A stretch of 40,605 bases of DNA from Candidatus Binatia bacterium (GCA_035542755.1 DATKKU010000041.1:1-40605); one strand, 5' to 3'; counted from the first letter of the stretch, positions 3,769 to 40,605 are shown. Numbers and translations are program-made. Notes: generated by a model not told the origin, from the letters alone.

Positions 3769-4923
3769 CTAAAGACCAAAAATTCCGCGGCGTTTTTTTC
3801 CTGGAACGAACACGCTGTTCATAAGCTCTGGGTCATAAGCTGCGGGCACCTGCTTGTACTGGGCGTAATAGAACAAAGCTGTATTTAACACGCTGGAAGC
3901 TGCCGAGAAAAAGATTGTTACTACCAGGAACGCAACTACAACCAGGCTAACTCCGACTGCCGCGCCTATGACACCCCCCAGGGCAGCAGTCGCGATAACC
4001 ACCGGGATTGCTATAACAAATAAGAGTAGATAAATAAGAAAAGTCGCTATACCAAAGCCCAAGCGACCGATTATGTTTTCGCCCCATGTGGCCTTGAGCA
4101 GCAGAGTGGAGGTCTTAATGGAACTGACGGCACTCTCGTCGGTAGTGACTATTACCGGTATTACAAATAATCTGGCAATTGACCACGCTGCGCCGACAAT
4201 CCATACAATAATTCTGCCCAGCAGCCTGGAACGCTCGGCGATGGCTCGCAGTATCATCCCGATGGTGGCTTCAATCACAGAAAACATAAACAAGGTCCCG
4301 GCCTTAGAGCGGGCAAGCTTCATATATTCCTTGTAGGGCTTTGACTGACCATGAAAAATATCAATAGTATTGGCTACCAAGCCGGCGGCGTAAAGATTAA
4401 CTATAAAGTAAGCCAAAACATAATAAATGAAGACAACGACGTAGCCGGCGGGCGAGGCGCTGTAGTTTGTAGTACCAGCACTATCAACAGTTTTTACCAG
4501 CAAAGTGTTACTGCCGACAAGGAAAATTATCCCAAAAATTATAGCCAGCCCTATACCCATTACAGCGCTCATAATTACGTATCTAACAAGCGACTCGTTG
4601 GTCCTTATTATTTTCATGCTTTGCTTAAACAGCAGCCAGCCGGTCTTGGTGCGCCCGCGCTTAACAGTTTGGGCGTTTAGCGGAGTTGCCCCGGCAGCTG
4701 ATGGCACAACTTGACTCTGTACACTGGCAAAAGCCTGCGTGACATATGGTTCGGGCCAGCCGGACGCGCGAAGCTGAGCAGCGATTTCGTCAGGGTGCAG
4801 TCCGGCATTCAGTTGCTGATAAACATAGGCAGCCAGTTTGGCTACTTCTTGCATTGGATCCGGGTTTGGTAAAGTGTCCATTTTTGCTTGCTTAAGATAA
4901 GCATAACAGGTTTCCGACCCCAT
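3769..4923 (-). CDS. polytopic integral membrane protein, unknown function
   Basis: 384-aa ORF with a soluble N-terminal segment followed by about 6 hydrophobic helices. The true start may be an internal Met (M15 at 4881). Family unknown. Confidence 0.6.
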   Translation of the reverse strand: MGSETCYAYLKQAKMDTLPNPDPMQEVAKLAAYVYQQLNAGLHPDEIAAQLRASGWPEPYVTQAFASVQSQVVPSAAGATPLNAQTVKRGRTKTGWLLFKQSMKIIRTNESLVRYVIMSAVMGIGLAIIFGIIFLVGSNTLLVKTVDSAGTTNYSASPAGYVVVFIYYVLAYFIVNLYAAGLVANTIDIFHGQSKPYKEYMKLARSKAGTLFMFSVIEATIGMILRAIAERSRLLGRIIVWIVGAAWSIARLFVIPVIVTTDESAVSSIKTSTLLLKATWGENIIGRLGFGIATFLIYLLLFVIAIPVVIATAALGGVIGAAVGVSLVVVAFLVVTIFFSAASSVLNTALFYYAQYKQVPAAYDPELMNSVFVPGKKRRGIFGL

Positions 4924-4941
4924 GCAAGCAGCAAACTAATC

Positions 4942-4979
4942 AAGAAAAAAGTCCAACACAAAAGTTAGACTTTTTTCTT
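4942..4979 (-). terminator. hairpin terminator directly after tRNA-Val
   Basis: Perfect 12-bp arms AAGAAAAAAGTC / GACTTTTTTCTT with a 14-nt loop. It could act in both directions because of the A-run and T-run. Confidence 0.65.
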
Positions 4980-5055
4980 GGTGGGCGCTGAGGGACTTGA
5001 ACCCCCGACCCTCTCGGTGTAAACGAGATGCTCTAGCCAACTGAGCTAAGCGCCC
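4979..5055 (-). tRNA. tRNA-Val(TAC), CCA encoded
   Basis: Reverse complement GGGCGCTTAGCTCAGTTGGCTAGAGCATCTCGTTTACACCGAGAGGGTCGGGGGTTCAAGTCCCTCAGCGCCCACCA. The anticodon loop is TTTACAC. Confidence 0.92.
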
Positions 5056-5130
5056 ACGTCGGAATCGACGTGCCAGCCTCCGTAAGCTCAAAACTTCGCT
5101 TACTTTCGGCTTAAGGTCGCTTCCTCCTCT
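5056..5130 (-). repeat. structured tRNA leader module, copy E (subfamily 2)
   Basis: The reverse complement GAGAGGAGGAAGCGACCTTAAGCCGAAAGTAAGCGAAG...GGCACGTCGATTCCGACGT is near-identical in its first ~30 nt and last ~20 nt to copy D (14169-14246). It runs straight into the tRNA-Val 5' end. Confidence 0.75.
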
Positions 5131-5171
5131 CAATTTTACAAAATATTGCACTGCAGAATTTTGTAAAATTG
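5131..5171. promoter_or_regulatory. AT-rich palindromic box (14-bp perfect arms CAATTTTACAAAAT / ATTTTGTAAAATTG)
   Basis: Read directly, with a 13-nt spacer. It is almost identical, in inverted orientation, to the box at 14129-14168. Confidence 0.55.
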
Positions 5172-5326
5172 GACCTCGCAAAATTGCAAGGGGAAAGGTA
5201 GTAGCCACGGTCTGCCTCTGGCAGATTCGGATTCATTCCGAAAGTGGCGTTGAAGGAAAAGTCGGGGTCCCCCGCAAAATGTAGTTTTGTGGGGTGGCAA
5301 AACCGCTAGGTTGTCCTTCAATATCG

Positions 5327-30426: not shown

Positions 30427-32031
30427 CTAAGTGGTTTTTTCGGCGATTAGCAGCATGTTGGTAACCGGAAAGTCCAAAGGCTTAAGACCGTCATCGCCAC
30501 GAACAAATAGCTGCGCGCCGTCTTTATATCTATTTTCTATAACCCAGTCGTTGGTGTAGGCGTTGGAACCATCCATAACGCTAAAGCCGACCTGCTTTAC
30601 GGCCTGGCACCACTGCTCATAGTTCCAATAACAAAAAGTCTCGTGCATTTCGCTGTACCAACTATCCGTGTAATCTTTTTTGCTCAAAAACTCACAGGCA
30701 TCAGCCAGCCGCAGCTCAATGTACTCGGAACCGTTGTCCTGAACTTGCTTGAACTCAAACTTTTGCTGCTCCTCGGCTCTAAAGTCTCTGGAAAAGCGGC
30801 GAAAGCGGCCCAAAGTAGAAAGCTCTTTAATATGCTCGGTATCAACTTTGGGAGAGACATCTATTTCTTCCCAGTTTTCGGTGCGGCCGTTAGAGTTATT
30901 TAGTTTGAGTAGCACTAGCTGGTCTTTATTGTCTGGAGCGACGACGTCGGAGTTTATAAAAACTCCGCCGCTGGCGGTTTGGGCGTATATTTTTTTAATA
31001 AATTGAAGTAAGGCGTCGCGGCCCAAGTATGACTCTATTTCGTGGGTTAGAGAGAAGGTGGTCGTGGTATCTATAGAATTATCGGGAAATATCATGCCGG
31101 TCATGATGTTGCGCTGATAAAAAAAGACGTTGTCGTTAGAAAACTCACCGTTTTTTCGGCGCTGTTCGCAAATATCATAGAGCTTACGTGAGGCCTCAAT
31201 GCCGTATAGGTCTGACTCTGCTAGCTTTGGGTCGCGGCTCATCAGCTGGATAACGCCGCCGGTGGCGCAACCTATGTCAACCACTCGGCCGCTTTTAATA
31301 AATGGTTTGATGAGCTCAAACTTGCGCTCGGCGCCAACTTCAAAATCCCGGCGATAAGTTTCGTAGTCGCGGGTTTCGGTGATGTCGCCCTCGTCGCCCA
31401 GCAGTGGGTCGTTAAAAACCTCTAAAATCAAGTCGCCCAGACGATATTTTTCCAGCATTTGACGCGATGAGTAATGAACATCACTTTGATAAAGCGGGTC
31501 GTTTCGCCAACTGGCGCCGGCGGCAACTATAGCCAGCACCAAATCCCAGGGACGTTTGTGCGAAGCCTCGGCGGTCTGTCGGTTAGTAAGCTCTGCCGGG
31601 GCGATGACGTAGCCCAACTTTTCGTACATATCAATCACCGAAGGCGTAGAGCATAGCACCAACGTATTACTAGGCGAAATATTAAATTGGCCTCGGCTTT
31701 GGACGGTTATTTCTTTGATGACAAAGTCGGCAAAGCGCTGAGTGTAGCCCAAGTCATTAATCGGATAAGAAAAACTAGTGGCCGGCAGTTCCTCACAAAA
31801 AGTTTCAATGGCCTGCTCGCGGCGGTTGCTGGGTATGGGGTTGCGGCGGGTGTTTTCGTGGTTAGCAGACGTTACTGCCCATATGATGTTGGGACTCGGG
31901 CGGAGCTTTATTGGTTGGCCGTTAATATCAAGCGACTGGCCGTCGCTGAGCAAGTTCTTTAAATATTCATATTGAAAGTTAGTCAGCAAATGGTGGCGTC
32001 CGGGTATTAAGATGTTTTCAAATGTTGACAT
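30427..32031 (-). CDS. fusion protein: nucleotidyltransferase-like N-domain (degenerate HxGH) plus class I SAM-dependent methyltransferase
   Basis: The N-terminus IPGRHHLLTNFQ...AVTSANHENTRRNPIPSNRRE resembles the NadM/NMNAT-type GRFQPFHxGH...SA....NPF..ER layout, but the HxGH positions read TNFQ. The middle has VVDIGCATGGV (SAM motif I). The 534 aa are otherwise unassigned. Confidence 0.6.
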   Translation of the reverse strand: MSTFENILIPGRHHLLTNFQYEYLKNLLSDGQSLDINGQPIKLRPSPNIIWAVTSANHENTRRNPIPSNRREQAIETFCEELPATSFSYPINDLGYTQRFADFVIKEITVQSRGQFNISPSNTLVLCSTPSVIDMYEKLGYVIAPAELTNRQTAEASHKRPWDLVLAIVAAGASWRNDPLYQSDVHYSSRQMLEKYRLGDLILEVFNDPLLGDEGDITETRDYETYRRDFEVGAERKFELIKPFIKSGRVVDIGCATGGVIQLMSRDPKLAESDLYGIEASRKLYDICEQRRKNGEFSNDNVFFYQRNIMTGMIFPDNSIDTTTTFSLTHEIESYLGRDALLQFIKKIYAQTASGGVFINSDVVAPDNKDQLVLLKLNNSNGRTENWEEIDVSPKVDTEHIKELSTLGRFRRFSRDFRAEEQQKFEFKQVQDNGSEYIELRLADACEFLSKKDYTDSWYSEMHETFCYWNYEQWCQAVKQVGFSVMDGSNAYTNDWVIENRYKDGAQLFVRGDDGLKPLDFPVTNMLLIAEKTT

Positions 32032-32123
32032 AATTAAAGGTTAGCACAAATTTAGGGGTTCAACTTTCGTCCTAAAAAAGCGGGACTCGTCAGCACGAGG
32101 AAAACTCGTGGAGTTGAGGGGGT

Positions 32124-32153
32124 GGCGGAGGTTCGCGTACGCGAACCTCCGCC
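32124..32153 (-). terminator. 30-nt perfect GC-rich palindrome, probable terminator of the island operon
   Basis: GGCGGAGGTTCGCG-TA-CGCGAACCTCCGCC lies 47 nt downstream of the vWA stop. A second hairpin CACGAG-GAAAA-CTCGTG and an A/T-run lie further downstream on the minus strand. Confidence 0.6.
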
Positions 32154-32199
32154 TGTCGGGAGCGATGGCTCAACCGACTAATGAGTGGGCGCGTGCGGG

Positions 32200-32982
32200 T
32201 TAGCCGCCAAAACCGCCAAGGGCGGTCTGGCTGAAGCTGCCAGCACTCTGGCTGGCGCGCACCGCGCTTTGACTGACGACCGCGAAGGCCTTGCGAATCT
32301 CGCTGGGCGAATTGCCCGGCGTGAGAATCCAGGTGTCCGGAATTCCCATGTCCGCGAAGATCTGGCGGAAGTCGGTGTGGCCGTCGTCGATACCGATGGC
32401 GGCCACGATGTGCTGTTCCGTCTTGAGCAGGCCCTGCACGATGGCCCTGACGTTGTCGGGCGTGTCGTAGGTGGAGTCCTCGCCATCGGTGACGATGACG
32501 GTGATGGCTCGCACTGCGACGCCGCCTGCCTCGAACTGGGCCACCTTTGCGGCCACACTGGTGAGTGTGACTGCTGCCTCCCGGTAAAGAGGCGTGCCGC
32601 CTGACGGGTTGTAGTTGCTGTTGTCCAGCTTGACGGCACCGGCCAGGGGCCGGTAGGCGTAGAAGACACCGCGGTTGAGCAGGTCGCAGCCGATCAGAAC
32701 ATCGGCCGACTGCTTGGACCCTGCCAGTGCCTCCACCACCTCGTTGCCGCCAATCCGCACTGCCTCAGGGTTGCCCGGAACGTAGGCGATGGAGCTGCTG
32801 TCGTCCAGCAGCATCCGCACCAGGACCGCCTCGCTGGAGCTGACGTCGTCCAGGCTGACGTCCCCCAGGCCCGCCATGATGGCGGGCCCCAGGGTATCGG
32901 CCGTCAACTCCATGGCCGCCGTGGCGCTGGCGTCCAGGCCGGCATCTCCCAGCAGGCTGCTGAGGTTTGCACTGTCACTCAT
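32200..32982 (-). CDS. vWA-domain protein, TerY-like (MIDAS intact)
   Basis: AAGGA RBS upstream. MIDAS motif LLDDSSS (DxSxS), followed by GGTPLY and VTDGEDS. Size and layout fit TerY-type vWA proteins. Confidence 0.85.
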   Translation of the reverse strand: MSDSANLSSLLGDAGLDASATAAMELTADTLGPAIMAGLGDVSLDDVSSSEAVLVRMLLDDSSSIAYVPGNPEAVRIGGNEVVEALAGSKQSADVLIGCDLLNRGVFYAYRPLAGAVKLDNSNYNPSGGTPLYREAAVTLTSVAAKVAQFEAGGVAVRAITVIVTDGEDSTYDTPDNVRAIVQGLLKTEQHIVAAIGIDDGHTDFRQIFADMGIPDTWILTPGNSPSEIRKAFAVVSQSAVRASQSAGSFSQTALGGFGG

Positions 32983-33021: not shown

Positions 33022-34071
33022 CTAGAGCCGGACGTCGGGCCAGCTGGGAAGCGGGTCGGTGGACTTGACGACGTGCATGCCAGCGTTGCGGAACCGGTCA
33101 AAGGCCGCGTCGGCCTCATCGGTGTAGTCCAGCACGCCGGGGATGACGACCGGAGAGGTGCAGTCCTCCAGGAGGTACACCTTGCCAGCCAGGTTCGGAT
33201 CCTTCGCCGTGATGTCGCTGAGCAGGTCGTCGATGGTCCAGGCAACGCAGTGGCTCTTGGCCTGACCGGCGATGGCCAGGACATCGAACTTCAGCAGCAT
33301 CTCGATGAAGACGGTGTTGCGCTGGGCGCTCGGCAGCTGCCGATTTCCCGCCGTGGTCAGGACCTCGGGGCCCAGAACCGAGTAGTTTTCGGTGAAGGCG
33401 TTGGTGCCCTTCACCTCAAAGCCGGTCTGTGCTCCGCGGGCGATGGCGTGGAAGAAGCAAGCCTCCTCCAGGCCGCTGACCAGAGCGTGACCCTTGCCGC
33501 CCAGCATGGCGTGGAAGGGCCAGATGGTCAGTGCATAGCGTCCGGCGGCGGCCAGCTGCTGCGTGTAGTGCTCAAGATGCTGCTGAGCAGCACTCAAGCT
33601 GACGTGCAGTGCGGAGGCCATGAACGGGCTAGCCGTCCACTTGCCGTCCAGGATGTCCTGGTGGCTGACGAGTGTGTACGGTGCCGGGTTGGCGCCGAAC
33701 TCGTCGACCAGGAAGGGCGGGTGAAACACCGCGTAGGCGCGGTGCGTATCCAGCGTGCAGTGGATGTCGCTGAGCAGACCCAGGTTGCGGTAGATGAACT
33801 CCGCAGTCCGGGCGCTGTCCTCTACAGCTCCGTTTCCGGAGCGGCCGCCCACGAACAGCTCGCCCTTGGGGTTGGCGAAGGTGTTCTGGGCGTCAATCAC
33901 CAGCAGGCCGACCTTGGTGCGGTCGGTTGCGCTGGCGCTCAGGCCGTGAGTCTGGCGCCAGTCGGTGGCAGCGGTTGCCAGACCGCCATAGTCCAGCCAG
34001 CGCTCGTCGTCTACCACCTTTGCCGGGTCGTAGTGCGCCGGCAACGGCAGCTGCGTAACAGTAGCAGTCAT
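33022..34071 (-). CDS. nicotinamidase / isochorismatase-family cysteine hydrolase (long PncA-like form)
   Basis: AAGGAG lies 7 nt before ATG 34071; the ORF-track start at 34188 lies inside the kinase gene. Motifs are LLVIDAQNTF (catalytic Asp), LDTHRAYAVFH (metal ligands), IWPFHAMLGGKG, VKGTNAFTENYS (catalytic Lys) and GQAKSHCVAWT (nucleophile Cys). Confidence 0.85.
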   Translation of the reverse strand: MTATVTQLPLPAHYDPAKVVDDERWLDYGGLATAATDWRQTHGLSASATDRTKVGLLVIDAQNTFANPKGELFVGGRSGNGAVEDSARTAEFIYRNLGLLSDIHCTLDTHRAYAVFHPPFLVDEFGANPAPYTLVSHQDILDGKWTASPFMASALHVSLSAAQQHLEHYTQQLAAAGRYALTIWPFHAMLGGKGHALVSGLEEACFFHAIARGAQTGFEVKGTNAFTENYSVLGPEVLTTAGNRQLPSAQRNTVFIEMLLKFDVLAIAGQAKSHCVAWTIDDLLSDITAKDPNLAGKVYLLEDCTSPVVIPGVLDYTDEADAAFDRFRNAGMHVVKSTDPLPSWPDVRL

Positions 34072-34099: not shown

Positions 34100-35968
34100 T
34101 TAGCTGAGTTTGAGCAGAGTAATTTCGCGGGCCGAAACCGCGTAGATGCCGTCACTGCCGGCCAAAAGCTGGCTGGCGGCGTCAACAAACGGTTCGGTAT
34201 CGGGGAACTCTTGCTCTACTTGCAGGGTTCCGTTAGCCGCCGTGATTCGGACGATTCCTTCGTCGGTGGCGGCATATAGAGACCTTCCGCTGGCAAAACG
34301 CCCGCGGATACCGCTTGCCAACCAGGAGTCATCGGTTTCTTCGGCCGAGGCCGAGGCAACCAATTCACCTTTTTGATTGACGACGTAGCAGTGGTTGACC
34401 AGCCGGCCTGCCTCTTGGATGCTGAGCATCAGCCACGCCAACTGGTTGGAAAATACACAGGTGGCGTCAATCAGCTGGCCCGGTAGGTTTGGAATTGGTA
34501 CGCGGTCGTTTAGCCCCGCGCCGCCAGTGTCAAAGACGAAGCTTCTCGTCATCTGACCGGCTTGGTAAAACCCCAGTCCGAAGCGGTCGCCCGCCCAGAA
34601 TAGAGTTTTGTCAGGTAGAACATCGCCGATGTAGCTGCTGCCCAACTTGCCGCTACGAACCAGCTGCCCGTTGGTAGTCCAGAAATAGGCCTCTGAGTTG
34701 GCGTCAAAGATTGGCAGCCGGCCGACGTTATCGGTTGTCAGGCTCTGCTTTGTCTGACCTGAGAAAACCAGCAGACGGTTTCGCTTGCCAAGCAGAGTGG
34801 TGTCGCCACTGATTCGGAAACGGAGCTCCGGATCAAGCTTGCCGCGAACCACTTCTTGGCCGTTCTCCCGGACAAAGCGTCCGTTCTCGTAGTGCAGATA
34901 GCGGAGTTTGCCGTTTTGAACGCAGGCGTGCAGAATTTGGCCCCGGGTGACGAACGTTCGAGTGGCCGTGACCTTACCTCGCCGTACGATGGTCTGAATC
35001 ACGGCTCCGGGTGCTGCACAGACCGGACATTTAGCCCTGGCATGGACGCTGCCGCAAACGCTGCAGACTGTCCAGCGCAGGTTATCGAGTAGTTGCAATG
35101 GAAAGACTTCGCGCAGGTCATTTTGGTAAACCCGCGTAAAGTAGTCCAGCAACTCGTCCGGCAACACGGTGAGTGGTAGAGCTGGTTTGGGGTAGAGGAC
35201 TTCAGGCGAGAAGACCGTGATTCTTGAAAGCACACGGTCGTCGTGCTGCAGCCGTTTGCCCGAGGTAGGTCTGTGGACTCCACCGTAGGGGCCAACAAAC
35301 AGCAGCGATTGGAACAACATGGTGCTAAAGGCGTACCAGTCAGAGTAACGGCTATGCGGTGTGCTGAGGACCAGGTGGTCCGGCGCGCAGGCCAGCGGGT
35401 CAACGAAGCGAGCCGTGAAGGTTCGGCAGAGGAACTTGCCAAACTGCATGCTGTCGGCGTCAACCAAGTACGAACGGTTGGTGCCGTCAAATAGCACGTT
35501 CAAATCGTTGAAGTCGCCGATGACTACTCCAGCCTGGTGCACCGCCTCCACCATTTCGCGTAGGTCGCGGAAGACTGCCAGAGTCTGGTTGCCGTCAATG
35601 CCGCCTTGTTCGCGCCACAGCCGGTCGCCCAGTCTGAGCAGTACTTCCTCGGTGTCCAGGTAGTTCATGGTGTAACCGGCAATGTCGGTGCCCGTTGAAC
35701 GGCGGTAAGCCAGTTCAAGCGGAGACACAACCCGTTCGGGCAAGACAGCGCCCGGGAAGGCCGGCAGCTTGGTTTGGATTTCGGCCAAGCGTTCTTTGGC
35801 CCCGGCCTGAGCCGAGGGGTTACCGGCGTAGTCCGGGTCGTTTGGTTGCTTGTACAGTTTCAACACCCGGCCGCCGTCAAGGCGGAATATGTCGGCCTCG
35901 CCGCCCTTGCCGATGATTGCCGTCGGCGGAAGCTGGCGACGCTGGCCATTTAGGTAAACGGTCGCCAC
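34100..35968 (-). CDS. atypical Ser/Thr protein-kinase-like protein with CxxC-x8-CxxC zinc ribbon and ~300-aa beta-rich C-terminal domain
   Basis: AGGAGG lies 4 nt before in-frame GTG 35968, right after the PP2C stop. The alternative ATG at 36013 overlaps PP2C by 35 nt. Motifs are Gly-loop IGKGGEADIF, VLKLYK (Lys), GVVIGDFNDLNVL (catalytic-loop-like), VDADSMQF (DFG-like) and CSVCGSVHARAKCPVC. Confidence 0.8.
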   Translation of the reverse strand: MATVYLNGQRRQLPPTAIIGKGGEADIFRLDGGRVLKLYKQPNDPDYAGNPSAQAGAKERLAEIQTKLPAFPGAVLPERVVSPLELAYRRSTGTDIAGYTMNYLDTEEVLLRLGDRLWREQGGIDGNQTLAVFRDLREMVEAVHQAGVVIGDFNDLNVLFDGTNRSYLVDADSMQFGKFLCRTFTARFVDPLACAPDHLVLSTPHSRYSDWYAFSTMLFQSLLFVGPYGGVHRPTSGKRLQHDDRVLSRITVFSPEVLYPKPALPLTVLPDELLDYFTRVYQNDLREVFPLQLLDNLRWTVCSVCGSVHARAKCPVCAAPGAVIQTIVRRGKVTATRTFVTRGQILHACVQNGKLRYLHYENGRFVRENGQEVVRGKLDPELRFRISGDTTLLGKRNRLLVFSGQTKQSLTTDNVGRLPIFDANSEAYFWTTNGQLVRSGKLGSSYIGDVLPDKTLFWAGDRFGLGFYQAGQMTRSFVFDTGGAGLNDRVPIPNLPGQLIDATCVFSNQLAWLMLSIQEAGRLVNHCYVVNQKGELVASASAEETDDSWLASGIRGRFASGRSLYAATDEGIVRITAANGTLQVEQEFPDTEPFVDAASQLLAGSDGIYAVSAREITLLKLS

Positions 35969-35978
35969 TTTTCCTCCT

Positions 35979-36803
35979 CTAGTTTTCTTCGGGTTTTGCC
36001 AGCCGTCCGACAATCAGTGTCGTGTCGTCGGGCAGCAGGCCGGGCTCGGGGTCTTTGCGTGGCCAGTCGCGGCTGATTAGCCGCAAGCGGCGGTTCAGCA
36101 GGTCTGGCTTGTTGGGGTCAAAGTAGTTCGGGTCGTCCCAAAACTGGCTGATGTTGCCGACCTGCTCACTCATGCCCGGCAGACTCATGTGCTCGGCAGC
36201 GATAAGGTCCATGACCCCATCACAGCCGATTGCAAAACTCTGCAAAGCTTCAAGCTCGCACGACGCCACAACTTCCAGGTTGGGAGCCTTCATATCCGGC
36301 TCCAAGCGGCCCGCCAGCAAGCCGTAAGCCGCATAAGGCGGCTGGTTGCCGGGGAATGGACCAAGCTGATAGATGTTGTTGTTGACGGCAAAGACTCCGT
36401 CACCCAAGGCAAAGAAGTCGGCCGTCTCGTCGGTCAGCGCAACACCAACGATTGTGAACAGAAAGTAGTCCTCAATCGTTTGGCGGTAGTTGCCGCCCAT
36501 CAGCCTGGCGGTAGAGTCAATGGTCTGAAGTACGTCTTCCAGTACTTCGTCCCAAAGGACTTCGCCGAAATCGCTGATGTGGTCGCTGACCGTGTTTGCT
36601 ACGAGGCGGGCACCAAGCTTCGCACCTACCTCGCTATCCTTGCTGCTGCCGCAACCATCGGTTACCACCGCAACTGTTGCCTGCTCGGTGCGAATGACGG
36701 CAAGGCCGTCCTGACCGTTTTTATGCAGGTTTATGTTGCGATGATTGCGCCCGGTTACGGAGCCGCTGGCAATCGCGAAGTCGTGGTGCGTCAAAGTGCT
36801 CAC
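35979..36803 (-). CDS. PP2C-family Ser/Thr phosphatase
   Basis: GRNHRNINLHKNGQDG...VAVVTDGCGS...FALGDG...AIGCDGVMD shows acidic metal-binding motifs in PP2C order. The start is GTG 36803 or, better spaced from GGAGGTG, TTG 36794. Confidence 0.78.
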   Translation of the reverse strand: MSTLTHHDFAIASGSVTGRNHRNINLHKNGQDGLAVIRTEQATVAVVTDGCGSSKDSEVGAKLGARLVANTVSDHISDFGEVLWDEVLEDVLQTIDSTARLMGGNYRQTIEDYFLFTIVGVALTDETADFFALGDGVFAVNNNIYQLGPFPGNQPPYAAYGLLAGRLEPDMKAPNLEVVASCELEALQSFAIGCDGVMDLIAAEHMSLPGMSEQVGNISQFWDDPNYFDPNKPDLLNRRLRLISRDWPRKDPEPGLLPDDTTLIVGRLAKPEEN

Positions 36804-36917
36804 CTCCGTTCATTTTTGGTTCCTGGTTGTCAAAGTTCAGCGGTGCGGTGTTTGCTCGCATCACCGGCTGGCGCTCAAAATATGCTTTAAGCGTTAGCCG
36901 CCAAAGCGGGCGATAAT

Positions 36918-38174
36918 TTAGACGCCAAAGACCTCCTTATATTTATTAATCTGAGACGGCGAGCCAGTATATTTGCCGGGGTCGTCGCTCAACTTTACGG
37001 TGCCGACTCCGTTGACGCGGGTGGCCTTCATGACAATGTTCAGGGCTTTTATACCGAGGTCATTGGTCAGACTGGTGCCCCAGCCAAACAGCACGTTTAT
37101 GCGGCTTTGAAAGTTTTCTTGCAGCGAAACAATGTCACCGATATCTAGTCCGTCGCTAAAGACAACTGTCTTTGTACGTGGGTCAATGGAATTTTGTGCG
37201 TAAAATTCAATTACCTTTTCGCCAAAATCGTAGGCGTCGCCAGAATCGTGGCGCACACCTTTCCATAACTCGGCCTGCTCTGGGCTAAAGTCGCTAAAGA
37301 AAAAATCACTGCCAAAAGTGTCGGTTAGAGCGATTGAATAGTCGTGGCCATAAAGACGGTACCAGTCGTCCAGAAATTTATTATGTGAGCCGGCAATATT
37401 TTGTCCGCGGGACTCGGCCAGCCCAGCGTAGACCATCGGCATTTCGTGGGCAAAGGTACCGATAGGCTTTAAGCCAAACTTGCGAGCCAAGCCAACATTT
37501 GAGGTGCCGACCAAATTGTCCGGGCACTCGGCCGCCAATCGTTCAATGACGTGGCTTTGCCAGCGGCTGCTAAAGTGACGGCGAGTACCAAAGTCGGCAA
37601 ACTTAATCTGCGGGTGGCTCTTTAGGATGTCAATCTTTTCGCTCAGTCGCCTATCGCCCTCCTCGTAGACTTCAAAGGGGTCTAGGTTGTGAGCCATCAA
37701 ATAGTTTTCAAAGTATATTTCATTTACCTCGGCTAGAACTGCCGTTTCCCAAAAAGTTACAGCCGGCCATTCGCCAGTTGTTTCAACGGCTAAATCGCCC
37801 TTTTGATTCAAGCCGACTTCTGCCTCCGGTAATTCCATATCTTCCAGATATTGCAAAAACTGCTCATTAAAAACCGCTTGGCCGTCGCTAAGACTAAGAC
37901 TACCAAGATATCTAAGTTCGGTTTCATTCCAGCCAAAGCGTCTGAGTGCCTCAAGCCTAGCGGCTAGCTCGGGCGGGGCAACAAACTCGCTAAGCTGCTC
38001 CGGGCCGCGGTTATGTAATGAAAAAGTAACTACGGCGCCTGGCTCTTTCGCATAAGCCAGTTGAGCCATAGTGGGCTTATAATAGTCCAATAACTCAGTT
38101 AGGTCGGGCAGGGCACCTTTGGCCGTCTGAGCCTCTATTGGTAGCTTTAACTCAGGTGATGTTATAGTGCTCAT
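36918..38174 (-). CDS. pncB: nicotinate phosphoribosyltransferase
   Basis: AGGAGG RBS (38181-38186). 418 aa with LLDYYKPTMAQ, FADFGTRRHFS and HEMPMV motifs typical of PncB. Confidence 0.9.
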   Translation of the reverse strand: MSTITSPELKLPIEAQTAKGALPDLTELLDYYKPTMAQLAYAKEPGAVVTFSLHNRGPEQLSEFVAPPELAARLEALRRFGWNETELRYLGSLSLSDGQAVFNEQFLQYLEDMELPEAEVGLNQKGDLAVETTGEWPAVTFWETAVLAEVNEIYFENYLMAHNLDPFEVYEEGDRRLSEKIDILKSHPQIKFADFGTRRHFSSRWQSHVIERLAAECPDNLVGTSNVGLARKFGLKPIGTFAHEMPMVYAGLAESRGQNIAGSHNKFLDDWYRLYGHDYSIALTDTFGSDFFFSDFSPEQAELWKGVRHDSGDAYDFGEKVIEFYAQNSIDPRTKTVVFSDGLDIGDIVSLQENFQSRINVLFGWGTSLTNDLGIKALNIVMKATRVNGVGTVKLSDDPGKYTGSPSQINKYKEVFGV

Positions 38175-38188
38175 GACCTACCTCCTAG

Positions 38189-38209
38189 TAATTGTATTTA
38201 ATACACTAA
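38189..38209. promoter_or_regulatory. candidate NrtR operator 1 (21-bp imperfect palindrome with GT-N7-AC core)
   Basis: TAATTGTAT-TTA-ATACACTAA, with core GT(38194-95)-ATTTAAT-AC(38203-04). It lies between the predicted pncB promoter and the RBS. Confidence 0.5.
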
Positions 38210-38222
38210 CTATCATGTCTAA

Positions 38223-38251
38223 AGAATATACAAGACTTAGTGTATTGTCAA
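38223..38251 (-). promoter_or_regulatory. pncB promoter
   Basis: The minus strand reads TTGACA (38251-38246), followed 15-17 nt later by TATATT/TATTCT. The -35 lies inside operator 2. Confidence 0.5.
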
Positions 38252-38256
38252 CACTA
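38238..38256. promoter_or_regulatory. candidate NrtR operator 2 (perfect 6-bp arms, GT-N7-AC core)
   Basis: TAGTGT-ATTGTCA-ACACTA. Its half-site TTAGTGTAT is the exact inverse of ATACACTAA in operator 1. Confidence 0.55.
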
Positions 38257-38276
38257 TTTATTTTTTTATCTACAAA

Positions 38277-38948
38277 CTAATCAAAGTTTCGGGGCAGGCT
38301 TTGGAGTGATTGGTGTTTGAAGCAGTAGAGTTTAGCCGGTCTGTGAGCGCCTTCACGCAGAAATTCTCCAGTGGGGACTATTAAGTCTAGCTCGGTAAAG
38401 CGCTTGCGGAAGTTACGTTTATCAAGCTCGTGTCCTAAGACTGCTTCGTAGGCCGATTGCAGCTGAGGAAACGTAAACTGACTAGGCAGCAGAGCGAACA
38501 CGGCGTTAGTATAGGCCAATTTGGAACGCAGACGCTCATGAGCGTATTTAATAATATCTGGATGGTCATAAGCCAGTTTTGGCAGGTTGCTAACAGGGAA
38601 GAACTGGGGGTTTTCGGTAGTTTTGCCACCAAGCGGGCTAAGGCCATAGCAAAGGCCCATATAGCTCACCGATACGGCGTGACCGCGGGGGTCGCGGCCA
38701 ACTGAATCAAAGGTATAAAGCTGTTCAATTAGACCTAGGCGTTTGGTATCTATACCAGTCTTTACACGCAGCACTCTGGTCAGAGCCTGCATGGTTGTCT
38801 CGCCTTCTGGGTTATAGCCGCCGGGCAGGGCCCACTGGCCCTTGAAGGGGATGTTTTGGCGTTGTAGCAGCAGGACGCAGAGCTGGCCGTCTATTAGCTG
38901 AAAAATGATGCCGTCAATTGTTAGAATAGGAGGTCTATATTCGCTCAT
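38277..38948 (-). CDS. nrtR: NrtR-type regulator (degenerate Nudix domain plus C-terminal winged helix)
   Basis: The Nudix fold has a degenerate box (GGYNPEGETTMQALTRVLRVKTG lacks the REx2EE glutamates). The C-terminus FTFPQLQSAYEAVLGHELDKRNFRKRF is typical of NrtR wHTH. It lies adjacent to pncB. Confidence 0.82.
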   Translation of the reverse strand: MSEYRPPILTIDGIIFQLIDGQLCVLLLQRQNIPFKGQWALPGGYNPEGETTMQALTRVLRVKTGIDTKRLGLIEQLYTFDSVGRDPRGHAVSVSYMGLCYGLSPLGGKTTENPQFFPVSNLPKLAYDHPDIIKYAHERLRSKLAYTNAVFALLPSQFTFPQLQSAYEAVLGHELDKRNFRKRFTELDLIVPTGEFLREGAHRPAKLYCFKHQSLQSLPRNFD

Positions 38949-38965
38949 ATGCGCAATTTACCATA

Positions 38966-38986
38966 AAAGTGTTAAATATACAATAA
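38966..38986. promoter_or_regulatory. candidate NrtR operator 3 upstream of nrtR (autoregulation?)
   Basis: AAAGTGT-TAAATAT-ACAATAA, with a GT-N7-AC core at 38971-38981, 18 nt upstream of the nrtR start codon. Confidence 0.4.
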
Positions 38987-39412
38987 CTGATTTACGGACT
39001 TAGCTTAGTCAAAGAATTGTTGCTGTCATCGGCCGCCGAAGGGGAGAGAGCCGCCACCCTCACTAAAAAACAGTGAACTAACCGAGCACTGAGCCTATCA
39101 TTGCACTAAACAGCTTCTACATGAGCCAGCTTTAACTAGTTGCTCCCAAAAGAATTAAAAAACTGTTTCCAATCATTCTCGCTTAGTTTTCCGCTGGTCT
39201 GGCGGATGACTATAAAATAGCGCTGGAAAAAATATAAGCACTGGATTCTTTTAGCAGCTGACCGGTCGGTCTTATCTTAAGGAGCTGGACTATAACTCGT
39301 GCATCCAGACCTAAAAGCTGTTAGGCCGACGCGCCAAGCCATTTTTGCTTAAGGCGTTCCAATCTTAACAAGAGTTTGCCTGCTTGCACTTTCATAGGCT
39401 AGACTTATTCTG

Positions 39413-40015
39413 ATGGGGAGCCTGATAAGTGACGTTAAGCATCCTGAGCCGAAGAGGCCTGTATCTAAAGACTCCTATACAACCAGCACTTTGTTTAAAG
39501 TCATGGTAAGAATTTTTAAAGAAATTCTTCTACGGGCTAAAAAATGGTTCTTGTCCCATAAACTAGCAATCGTAATCGTGGCAATTTTAATAATTTCTGG
39601 TGCTATTGGTCTAGACAAGGTACGTGTTCACAGCCCTCCGCCCGGTCCTTTGCCTGCAAACGTTGTCAGCTCCGTAAATTTTCGACTATATTACCCAGCG
39701 ACTTTGCCGAGTGGCTATGTGCTTGTGCCGGGCTCGGCTAAGACTGAGCATGGGATAGTTTTTTACACACTACAAAATGGCAACAATAAAATAACTATCA
39801 GCGAACAGCCTTTGCCCCAACATCCGCCTGACTTAAAATCGATAAGTGGCTTTAATGTCTTAACCGGCGATTCGGGGTCAATTGCTTTCGGTACGACCGA
39901 TGGATCGCCGGCAGCTATCTTGCTTACCGGCAATGCCCTAGTTGCACTAAACAGCACAACTAGCACTCCAACTACCGATGTTGTTAAGGTAGCTCAAAAG
40001 ATGAGGCCACTATAA
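39413..40015 (+). CDS. hypothetical membrane-anchored protein (possibly DUF4367-like)
   Basis: 200-aa ORF with a TM helix (LAIVIVAILIISGAIGL), then FRLYYPATLPSGYVLVPGS...ITISEQP. The start codon is uncertain. Confidence 0.5.
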   Translation: MGSLISDVKHPEPKRPVSKDSYTTSTLFKVMVRIFKEILLRAKKWFLSHKLAIVIVAILIISGAIGLDKVRVHSPPPGPLPANVVSSVNFRLYYPATLPSGYVLVPGSAKTEHGIVFYTLQNGNNKITISEQPLPQHPPDLKSISGFNVLTGDSGSIAFGTTDGSPAAILLTGNALVALNSTTSTPTTDVVKVAQKMRPL

Positions 40016-40034
40016 AATCCTGGGCTAAACTAAG

Positions 40035-40605
40035 CTATTGCACCTGATATTCTATGTAACTGCCTGCACAAGTCTCGGATATCCTGCCGGCAGCGGCCGC
40101 ATTGTTGGCGAACTGGTAGTTCATGGTGCCGCTGGAGTTAGGCTGGAAGCTGAAGGTACCTTGGAAAACTCGCTGGTCGGCTACCGTGGCAGCCGTGCCC
40201 AGACTTAGTCCGCCGCTGGGGAAGGTAGTAGTCGCCCCTAAAACCCCGGCCGAAGATTGGATAGCATCAGCTGTTGTAGTACTAACGTAGGTTCCGCTAA
40301 CATTCTTGGCGGCAATCGCCGCCGGGAACAGGAATTCGCCCTTATAGTCACCCGTAGCGTTACTGCCTGAGTAAACTATGTAAAAACGCACGGTATAGGT
40401 GACCCCGCCAGTTACAGGGAACTGTAGAACGCTATCATTGGCATAAGTAGCACTGTTGGTAACGTCCTGAGCGGTAGTTTTAGTAATGCCAATCCAGGGA
40501 CTTATACAATTTACCCACGCGCCGTTTTGATAACAACGAAAGGTGTTAGTAGAAGTGTTATAGTACATCGCGCCACTGACTCCTGTCGGATCGGCCGATT
40601 GATTA
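40035..40605 (-). CDS. C-terminal part of a larger secreted/surface protein (partial, open at the window edge)
   Basis: The reading frame stays open upstream of Met 40568 to the window end (..NQSADPTGVSGAMYYNTSTNTFRCYQNGAWVNC). The rest is a Thr/Ser/Gly/Ala-rich beta-type sequence. Confidence 0.5.
   Translation of the reverse strand, partial: NQSADPTGVSGAMYYNTSTNTFRCYQNGAWVNCISPWIGITKTTAQDVTNSATYANDSVLQFPVTGGVTYTVRFYIVYSGSNATGDYKGEFLFPAAIAAKNVSGTYVSTTTADAIQSSAGVLGATTTFPSGGLSLGTAATVADQRVFQGTFSFQPNSSGTMNYQFANNAAAAGRISETCAGSYIEYQVQ

Follow-up and report, generated by a model that had tools for sequence, protein, structure and literature searches.

Anantharaman, Iyer and Aravind reportedly described in 2012 a TerY-P triad consisting of a vWA protein, a PP2C phosphatase and a Ser/Thr kinase. 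The locus analysed here resembles this triad in that the three protein types are encoded in one predicted operon and that the vWA protein carries a complete MIDAS. It differs in that the triad encloses a nicotinamidase-like gene, predicted NrtR operators stand at its head and tellurite-resistance genes are absent.

Described NrtR regulons (Rodionov et al. 2008, PMC2330246; Shewanella oneidensis NrtR 3GZ5/3GZ6/3GZ8) rely on a repressor with a Nudix-like domain and a winged helix, an architecture also found here. The operators lie over the promoters of pncB, pncA, nadD, nadE and pnuC-nadR, are 21 bp long with a GT-N7-AC core, and resemble those described below; the regulator also controls its own gene, which is predicted for this locus as well. 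ADP-ribose was shown to be the effector of the two NrtRs tested, those of Synechocystis and Shewanella (PMC2330246). Saccharibacteria and Patescibacteria lie outside that work. Further differences are that the regulon described here is a single locus, that the predicted operon puts a kinase, a PP2C phosphatase and a vWA protein together with two salvage enzymes, and that the nicotinamidase is long (349 aa), divergent and barely detectable with Pfam.

A link between NrtR and such a cassette has its nearest precedent in ADP-ribosylglycohydrolase conflict systems, for which regulation by NrtR-like Nudix-HTH factors has been predicted (PMC9503650). There, too, ADP-ribose is predicted to turn on a set of several genes through an NrtR-like sensor, and vWA proteins are frequent partners, but those systems are built on ADP-ribosylglycohydrolase and phosphoesterases and not on kinase/PP2C and nicotinamidase; the words nicotinamidase and PncA are absent from the text of that paper. 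Among solved structures, BtAraR of Bacteroides thetaiotaomicron (5BS6) is the best match to the regulator (5e-36 over the full length) and shares its two-domain fold. BtAraR binds arabinose and regulates arabinose utilisation, whereas the predicted targets here are all NAD-related. In the literature searched, no paper contained both 'Saccharibacteria' and 'NrtR', and no link of TerY-P, PP2C or vWA to NrtR or nicotinamidase was found.

The window, by which we mean the whole stretch of DNA analysed, is the entire contig C41 (40,605 bp) of a genome assembly of 761,307 bp in 50 contigs, which is 91% complete and whose relatives carry the label Candidatus Saccharibacteria / Saccharimonadales. On the minus strand, box 3 is followed by nrtR, box 2, box 1, pncB, a spacer of 114 nt and the genes for the PP2C phosphatase, the kinase, the 349-aa protein and the 260-aa protein:

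38966..38986, minus strand: box 3, AAAGTGTTAAATATACAATAA, predicted NrtR operator upstream of nrtR
38955..38963, minus strand: putative extended -10 of nrtR, TGgTAAATT, 6 nt ahead of the ATG
38277..38948, minus strand: nrtR, encoding a Nudix-like domain with a degenerate box and an NrtR winged helix
38238-38256 (as a 21-mer 38237..38257), minus strand: box 2, TAGTGTATTGTCAACACTA, spanning the -35 hexamer of the pncB promoter
38223..38251, minus strand: predicted pncB promoter, TTGACA-17-TATTCT, the best sigma-70-like match in the region (10/12)
38189..38209, minus strand: box 1, TAATTGTATTTAATACACTAA, between the predicted start site and the pncB Shine-Dalgarno sequence
36918..38174, minus strand: pncB, nicotinate phosphoribosyltransferase (Pfam NAPRTase, 3.9e-55)
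36804..36917, minus strand: pncB-PP2C spacer of 114 nt, holding the conserved leader element CTTTGACAACCAGGAACCA
35979..36803, minus strand: PP2C phosphatase (Pfam PP2C_2, 5.4e-14)
34100..36013, minus strand: atypical protein kinase with a long C-terminal extension (weak matches)
33022..34071, minus strand: long nicotinamidase-like enzyme of 349 aa with a predicted isochorismatase fold
32200..32982, minus strand: vWA protein of 260 aa with a complete MIDAS (AF2 pLDDT 86.8)
32124..32153, minus strand: G+C-rich hairpin after the vWA gene with a stem of 13-14 bp, candidate end of the transcription unit

All three palindromes claimed by the sequence-only reading are present at these positions with matching sequences, and the -35 hexamer TTGACA (38251-38246, minus strand) lies inside box 2, in agreement with the overlap proposed there. 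The boxes share the consensus TTAGTGT-N7-ACACTAA, a 21-bp palindrome. On the coding strand, box 3 reads TTATTGTATATTTAACACTTT and ends 4 nt ahead of the TG of the extended -10. The centre-to-centre distance between boxes 1 and 2 is 48 bp, and a spacing of 48-49 bp recurs in four relatives (G033, G048, G053 and G060).

The bare core GTGT-N7-ACAC, allowing at most one mismatch, was not enriched in the window (5 found vs 9.3 expected), and this search was superseded by 21-bp leave-one-out matrices, each built from two boxes and applied in both orientations. The omitted box ranked 3rd, 4th and 3rd among 760,307 positions of the 761,307-bp genome, and every box was first or second among the untrained positions genome-wide; box 3, when omitted, ranked behind only the two training boxes. 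A genome scan with the matrix of all three boxes scored these at 24-28 bits and the next-best sites at 17.6 bits or less. The runner-up sites were located at the end of serS, upstream of uvrA and inside parB. As these sites are weak and none of them lies at an NAD gene, the regulon in this assembly would be a single locus.

An nrtR gene was present in seven of 60 relatives, and all seven carried two or three strong motif matches beside nrtR or other NAD genes. G033 is the closest relative with the gene order of the window (nrtR-boxes-pncB), and its NrtR is 64% identical. Between the window and G033, identity is 100% over a block of 27 nt around box 2 and almost complete at box 1, while the sequence between the two boxes has diverged; the position of box 3 upstream of nrtR is conserved as well. 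In the other relatives, boxes were found between pncA-pncB and an ADP-ribosylglycohydrolase gene (G048, with nadE-nrtR too), between nadD and nadE-nrtR (G053), between nrtR and pncA (G060), as a set of three between nrtR and pnuC-nadR (G018 and G010), and next to nrtR with two tiny ORFs only thereafter (G044). This placement of the predicted operators is the classical NrtR pattern. From 52 sites, collected in Patescibacteria loci and in two MAGs labelled Gammaproteobacteria, the symmetrised consensus TTAGTGTATAATATACACTAA was derived, in which T5 G6 T7 and A15 C16 A17 carry the most information; this consensus is partly circular, since the sites were collected with the window's own matrix.

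The genome contains one nrtR match. The encoded protein combines an N-terminal Nudix fold (Pfam NUDIX PF00293, residues 18-131, 1.2e-11) with a C-terminal winged helix of the NrtR type (NrtR_WHD PF21906, residues 150-210, 1.5e-25). Its Nudix box, read from the sequence, is G44-x5-E50-x7-R58-V-L-R-V-K-T-G-I, and the glutamates of the REUXEE motif are replaced by V, V and K. The loss of all three catalytic glutamates fits the earlier suggestion that the box is degenerate and probably non-catalytic. In the PDB search, BtAraR (5bs6) was followed by Shewanella NrtR (3gz5, 1e-33), both aligning over the full length. Against NCBIfam NF050029, the ADPR-responsive repressor, the protein reached 143.4 bits and thus stayed under the 400-bit equivalog cut-off; it is therefore related to, but no equivalog of, that clade. 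Domain architecture, 21-bp palindromes with a GT-N7-AC core near the regulator gene, and predicted operators at NAD genes that are conserved across related genomes place the protein in the NrtR family. In the NrtR tree, the Saccharibacteria proteins form one clade (support 98/91) in which the window's NrtR is sister to that of G033. Island-linked and NAD-gene-linked proteins are intermixed within the clade, which suggests that one NrtR lineage serves both kinds of target.

The leave-one-out specificity, the conservation in G033, the NAD genes in the seven relatives and the agreement of the boxes with the published NrtR operator, a 21-bp palindrome with the core GT-N7-AC (PMC2330246), all speak for the operator identity that the sequence-only reading had put forward, and we consider it very probable that the three boxes are NrtR operators. 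The palindromes might instead be chance A+T-rich inverted repeats or sites of another DNA-binding protein, which would be in line with the lack of enrichment of the bare 8-nt core in the window. However, neither the leave-one-out ranks nor the conservation in G033 nor the match to the published family motif would be expected then, and the boxes co-occur with nrtR from Saccharibacteria to myxobacteria with 70% G+C. This explanation is thus highly improbable and close to refuted. A different question is which ligand the NrtR senses. Family membership does not reveal the effector, because the best PDB match, BtAraR, responds to arabinose. This arabinose sensor being the nearest solved homologue by sequence, and a score of 143 bits against the 400-bit cut-off of the ADPR repressors, would be compatible with NAD, NaAD, phospho-ADP-ribose or another nucleotide-sugar as the ligand, in which case the logic would not be 'ADP-ribose-type'. 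On the other hand, all predicted targets are related to NAD salvage or ADP-ribose, including the ADP-ribosylglycohydrolase gene of G048, and ADP-ribose is the effector of both NrtRs tested in PMC2330246. By analogy with these, ADP-ribose is a plausible effector here, and we regard a different ligand as unlikely.

The predicted pncB promoter has a counterpart in G033 (TTGACA-17-TACACT), and pncB is preceded by the Shine-Dalgarno sequence GGAGG; its assignment agrees with a match to NCBIfam NF003704 (388.8 bits, over the 379-bit cut-off). The extended -10 of nrtR is conserved in G033 as TGaTACAAT at equal distance. As this element lies only 6 nt from the ATG and no Shine-Dalgarno sequence was found upstream of nrtR, the nrtR mRNA is probably leaderless, and it is probably autorepressed.

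Downstream of pncB, the alignment with G033 indicates that the true start of the PP2C gene is likely a TTG at 36794, 7 nt past its own GGAGG. The kinase showed weak matches throughout (Pkinase 0.002, LanL kinase region 1.7e-8, PD-T4-6 1.8e-5), but nearly all of the 80 loci that were fetched with the nicotinamidase-like protein have it in the same place. PDB sequence searches with the nicotinamidase-like and the vWA protein returned no meaningful match, and predicted folds were used for both after these null results. For the nicotinamidase-like protein (AF2 model with a pLDDT of 90.4), the top 17 Foldseek matches were all nicotinamidases (best 2wta, 4e-10), while the Pfam match to PF00857 (E = 0.03, 14.8 bits) stayed under the cut-off of 27. 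Across 33 sequences, residues D60, D108, H110, K221 and C275 do not vary; the predicted fold, the triad D60/K221/C275 and the metal motif D108/H110 suggest a PncA-type enzyme. The model of the vWA protein matched integrin I and vWA domains (Foldseek, ~1e-7), and its MIDAS residues D60, S62, S64, T130 and D166 are invariant. The labels nicotinamidase and vWA, originally given from sequence, are hence borne out by the predicted folds. A vWA protein with MIDAS, a PP2C phosphatase and a Ser/Thr kinase, the latter weakly supported, thus occur together as in a TerY-P triad, and their genes stand together in most of the 80 loci. PADLOC detected no known defence system, and the four-gene cassette is not among its systems.

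The spacer between pncB and the PP2C gene (36804-36917) is, with 114 nt, long for an operon junction, which counts against the view of a single transcript. In scans of this spacer, NrtR boxes, sigma-70-like promoters and T-run terminators were all absent, and its folding is unremarkable (z = -0.84). The weak bulged hairpin that had been noted after pncB is present, likewise without a T-run; it belongs to a 13-bp stretch (36893-36905) in which the 3' end of the vWA gene is repeated exactly. As a terminator it was rejected, given the missing T-run, the z-score of the spacer and its origin in the repeat. The missing terminator says little in itself, since terminator-like sites are no commoner in the window than in shuffles (26 found vs 25.1 expected). 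An internal promoter at the TTGACA of the spacer was also considered and rejected, as ten aligned leaders lack a -10 at the right distance. The region around the hairpin after the vWA gene (32020-32215) folds with z = -5.09, and none of 200 shuffles was as good. An Rfam scan of 36000-40605 yielded no match.

The spacer aligns with box-free PP2C 5' leaders of other Saccharibacteria, with which it shares the element TTAACAA-N3-GGAAyCA. In those genomes the element lies downstream of a boxed promoter. Because the spacer matches leaders lying past boxed promoters, the window appears to have kept the PP2C leader and not the promoter-operator part, with pncB and its boxes in that place. RNAalifold detected no consensus structure in the PP2C leaders.

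Few genomes of the order (five of 301) encode the nicotinamidase-like protein. In three Saccharibacteria genomes, the four genes have neither nrtR nor pncB next to them, and boxes of the NrtR type are situated on canonical promoters directly upstream of PP2C. The wider scan with the nicotinamidase-like protein yielded the 80 loci mentioned above, which span Saccharibacteria, Paceibacteria, Myxococcota, Elusimicrobiota, Acidobacteriota, Oligoflexia and others and most of which keep the order PP2C-kinase-nicotinamidase-like-vWA; 59 of them could be evaluated upstream of PP2C. An nrtR homologue was present in the flanks of 46 of the 80 loci, and in 26 of the 59 evaluable ones it lies immediately upstream of PP2C in the same orientation; several box-bearing loci had no nrtR within 10 kb, which counts against control by NrtR. 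In 42 of 59 loci, the 300 bp ahead of PP2C contained a perfect GTGT-N7-ACAC core, compared to a mean of 0.135 and a maximum of one locus in dinucleotide-preserving shuffles of the same regions. As controls, the regions upstream of the kinase (0/63) and of the vWA gene (0/75) contained no perfect core; the corresponding control for the nicotinamidase-like gene (0/79) is uninformative, as an over-long ORF start was used and real boxes were missed. The density of the core was 3.5 per kb upstream of PP2C vs 0.12 per kb over all locus DNA. In nine further loci, PP2C immediately follows a co-directional nrtR and the core lies ahead of that nrtR, one Acidobacteriota locus showed the order box-pncB-nrtR-PP2C, and in G033 a perfect core lies upstream of pncB, ahead of PP2C. 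A perfect core therefore heads the PP2C-containing gene run in 53 of 59 loci, a count that overstates the independent support because many loci belong to related myxobacteria, although the pattern recurs in several phyla. Three loci (L030, L034 and L035) contained no box.

Loci in which the cassette is split are informative in this regard. In 11 loci, all myxobacterial, the kinase and the nicotinamidase-like gene lie 0.8-5.7 kb apart, and in all 11 the nicotinamidase-like gene has a new box, single or paired, less than 100 bp ahead of it. In three Saccharibacteria loci (L032, L033 and L036), pncB and the cassette form separate units, each with boxes of its own. Only in the window and in G033 does pncB stand directly ahead of PP2C, and there the boxes precede pncB and none precedes PP2C. 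As a rule, there seems to be one operator set per transcription unit. That every cassette split elsewhere brings new boxes suggests that NrtR control is under selection.

Comparison with about 80 genomes thus indicates that NrtR would govern the phosphatase-kinase-nicotinamidase-vWA block behind pncB, and the read-through from pncB into the island that the sequence-only reading had proposed gains strong, though indirect, support from the cassette boxes across phyla, from the split loci and from a spacer that lacks box, promoter and terminator. It could be argued that the boxes control nrtR and pncB only and that the cassette has an NrtR-independent start in the spacer, control having been lost behind pncB. 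This would be consistent with the length of the spacer, with the conservation of its TTGACA (36829-36834) as TTAACA in G033, with the loci without any box, and with the 13-bp repeat, which suggests a rearrangement at exactly the pncB-PP2C junction. However, none of the ten aligned leaders has a -10-like hexamer 16-18 nt from this TTGACA, and the promoter scan reported nothing in the spacer. In other genomes, the TTGACA/TTAACA element sits past the boxed promoters and is thus part of a leader and not a promoter, and new boxes at each split would be difficult to reconcile with a cassette that is free of NrtR. We therefore consider an independent start in the spacer improbable and favour continuous transcription from the NrtR-controlled promoter.

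Taken together, we infer a mechanism in which a single NrtR, presumably as a dimer, binds the three 21-bp palindromes. Box 3 overlaps the predicted nrtR promoter, and binding there would lead to autorepression. As box 2 covers the -35 and box 1 lies just past the predicted start site, the pncB promoter would be clamped from both sides. Transcription from this promoter most likely continues through the genes for the PP2C phosphatase, the kinase, the nicotinamidase-like enzyme and the vWA protein, and probably stops at the hairpin at 32124-32153. One NrtR-controlled mRNA would thereby encode both steps of nicotinamide salvage, the nicotinamidase-like enzyme followed by PncB, along with the kinase/phosphatase/vWA trio. 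A product of NAD breakdown, most likely ADP-ribose by analogy with characterised NrtRs, would release the repressor. We consider this mechanism as a whole, co-transcription of pncB and the cassette included, to be likely.

We further searched the window's genome for other NAD genes. The relatives' nadE, pncA, pnuC, nadR and ADP-ribosylglycohydrolase gave no hit in tblastn, and the Pfam search returned no Isochorismatase and no CTP_transf_like match; the sole NAD_synthase match of the genome is a weak one on contig C12. As a canonical pncA and a nadD-type Pfam match were not found in the 91%-complete assembly, the locus may hold most of the NAD-salvage capacity of the cell, with one repressor over all of it.

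NrtR regulons are textbook comparative genomics, and a box set before pncB alone would add only a new lineage. The operator evidence described here ties a widespread kinase/phosphatase/vWA/nicotinamidase operon to a sensor of NAD status and names a concrete input signal, open to testing, for a triad of the TerY-P kind. It may be speculated that in at least six phyla NrtR and its GTGT-N7-ACAC operators are the built-in switch of a nicotinamidase/kinase/PP2C/MIDAS-vWA operon, and that NAD breakdown, sensed as ADP-ribose, turns on nicotinamide recycling together with a phosphorylation switch that may gate this recycling. The gene pncB would have been recruited to the operon head in Saccharibacteria and, independently, in an Acidobacteriota genome, and a role of the module in restoring NAD after NADase attack, as a circuit that responds to stress or to phage, is conceivable. 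Taken jointly, these proposals are tentative and, in our judgement, slightly more doubtful than probable. Carriers of the cassette include the cultivable genera Archangium, Cystobacter, Hyalangium and Sorangium, in which testing is practical.

The four-gene block that lies 3' of pncB in the window, comprising the PP2C, kinase, nicotinamidase-like and vWA genes, has a G+C content of 57-66%, whereas its surroundings range from 43 to 51%. It is bracketed by an exact 13-bp direct repeat, GTTAGCCGCCAAA, with copies at 32199-32211 and 36893-36905. One copy forms the last codons of the vWA gene (F-G-G-stop), while the other lies 13 nt past the pncB stop and takes in the bulged hairpin that the sequence-only reading had described as weak in the pncB-PP2C spacer (36804-36917). 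The repeat may be a scar of the cassette's arrival behind pncB. Three further features were located at the borders of the block:

36815-36837, minus strand: conserved element (C)TTAACAA-N3-GGAAyCA, approximately 30-45 nt 5' of the PP2C start
32124-32153, minus strand: G+C-rich hairpin, almost perfectly paired over a stem of 13-14 bp, from the fold of 32020-32215
30427-32031, minus strand: gene for a 534-aa protein with a class I methyltransferase domain

The leader element occurs at this distance from the PP2C start in nine of ten Saccharibacteria loci (among them the window, L025, L028, L030, L033, L036, L020 and L021) and is situated downstream of the predicted NrtR operators (boxes) wherever these exist. 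No -10 was found at promoter distance from the element in the Saccharibacteria PP2C leaders, and RNAalifold returned no consensus fold for it. At the other end of the block, the minus-strand spacer between the vWA and methyltransferase genes (32020-32215) folds far better than shuffled sequences (z = -5.09). Its hairpin is followed some way 3' by a U-run, and the region could mark the end of the operon or act as an RNA-stability element. The 534-aa protein combines its methyltransferase domain with an N-terminal part of about 240 aa to which no domain is assigned. It recurs in several Saccharibacteria loci, where it either adjoins the cassette or lies downstream of a boxed pncB (counterparts in L021, 11652-13262; L032, 11972-13564; L033, 5493-7039), and its gene could be a further member of the NrtR-linked set. 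In the ~430 nt that separate box 3 from the following gene (38987-39412), we detected neither a credible ORF nor an Rfam match at E up to 1.

A six-frame Pfam search of the window's own genome (G000, a 91%-complete assembly) gave no match to Isochorismatase (canonical PncA) or CTP_transf_like (NadD/NadR-type), and the sole NAD_synthase match was weak (contig C12, 413-985). NAD salvage in this organism may depend on the divergent enzymes of the pncB-cassette locus alone.

In the relative G048 (L010), an ADP-ribosylglycohydrolase-like gene (4265-5224) is divergent from pncA-pncB and shares with it intergenic DNA containing two NrtR boxes (4141-4210 region); a 262-aa gene follows pncB. In G044 (L011), a full predicted NrtR promoter-operator pair (1031-1092) lies 3' of nrtR, followed only by ORFs of 13 and 58 codons (1104-1340 region) before convergent metG. 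Either the pair serves a small target of NrtR, or it is left over from a target that has been lost. In eight Myxococcota loci (L039, L042, L045, L048, L054, L055, L062 and L071), the kinase and nicotinamidase-like genes are separated by 3-5.7 kb of other genes, and in each locus two new GTGT-N7-ACAC boxes, arranged in tandem at a spacing of 22 bp, precede the downstream half.
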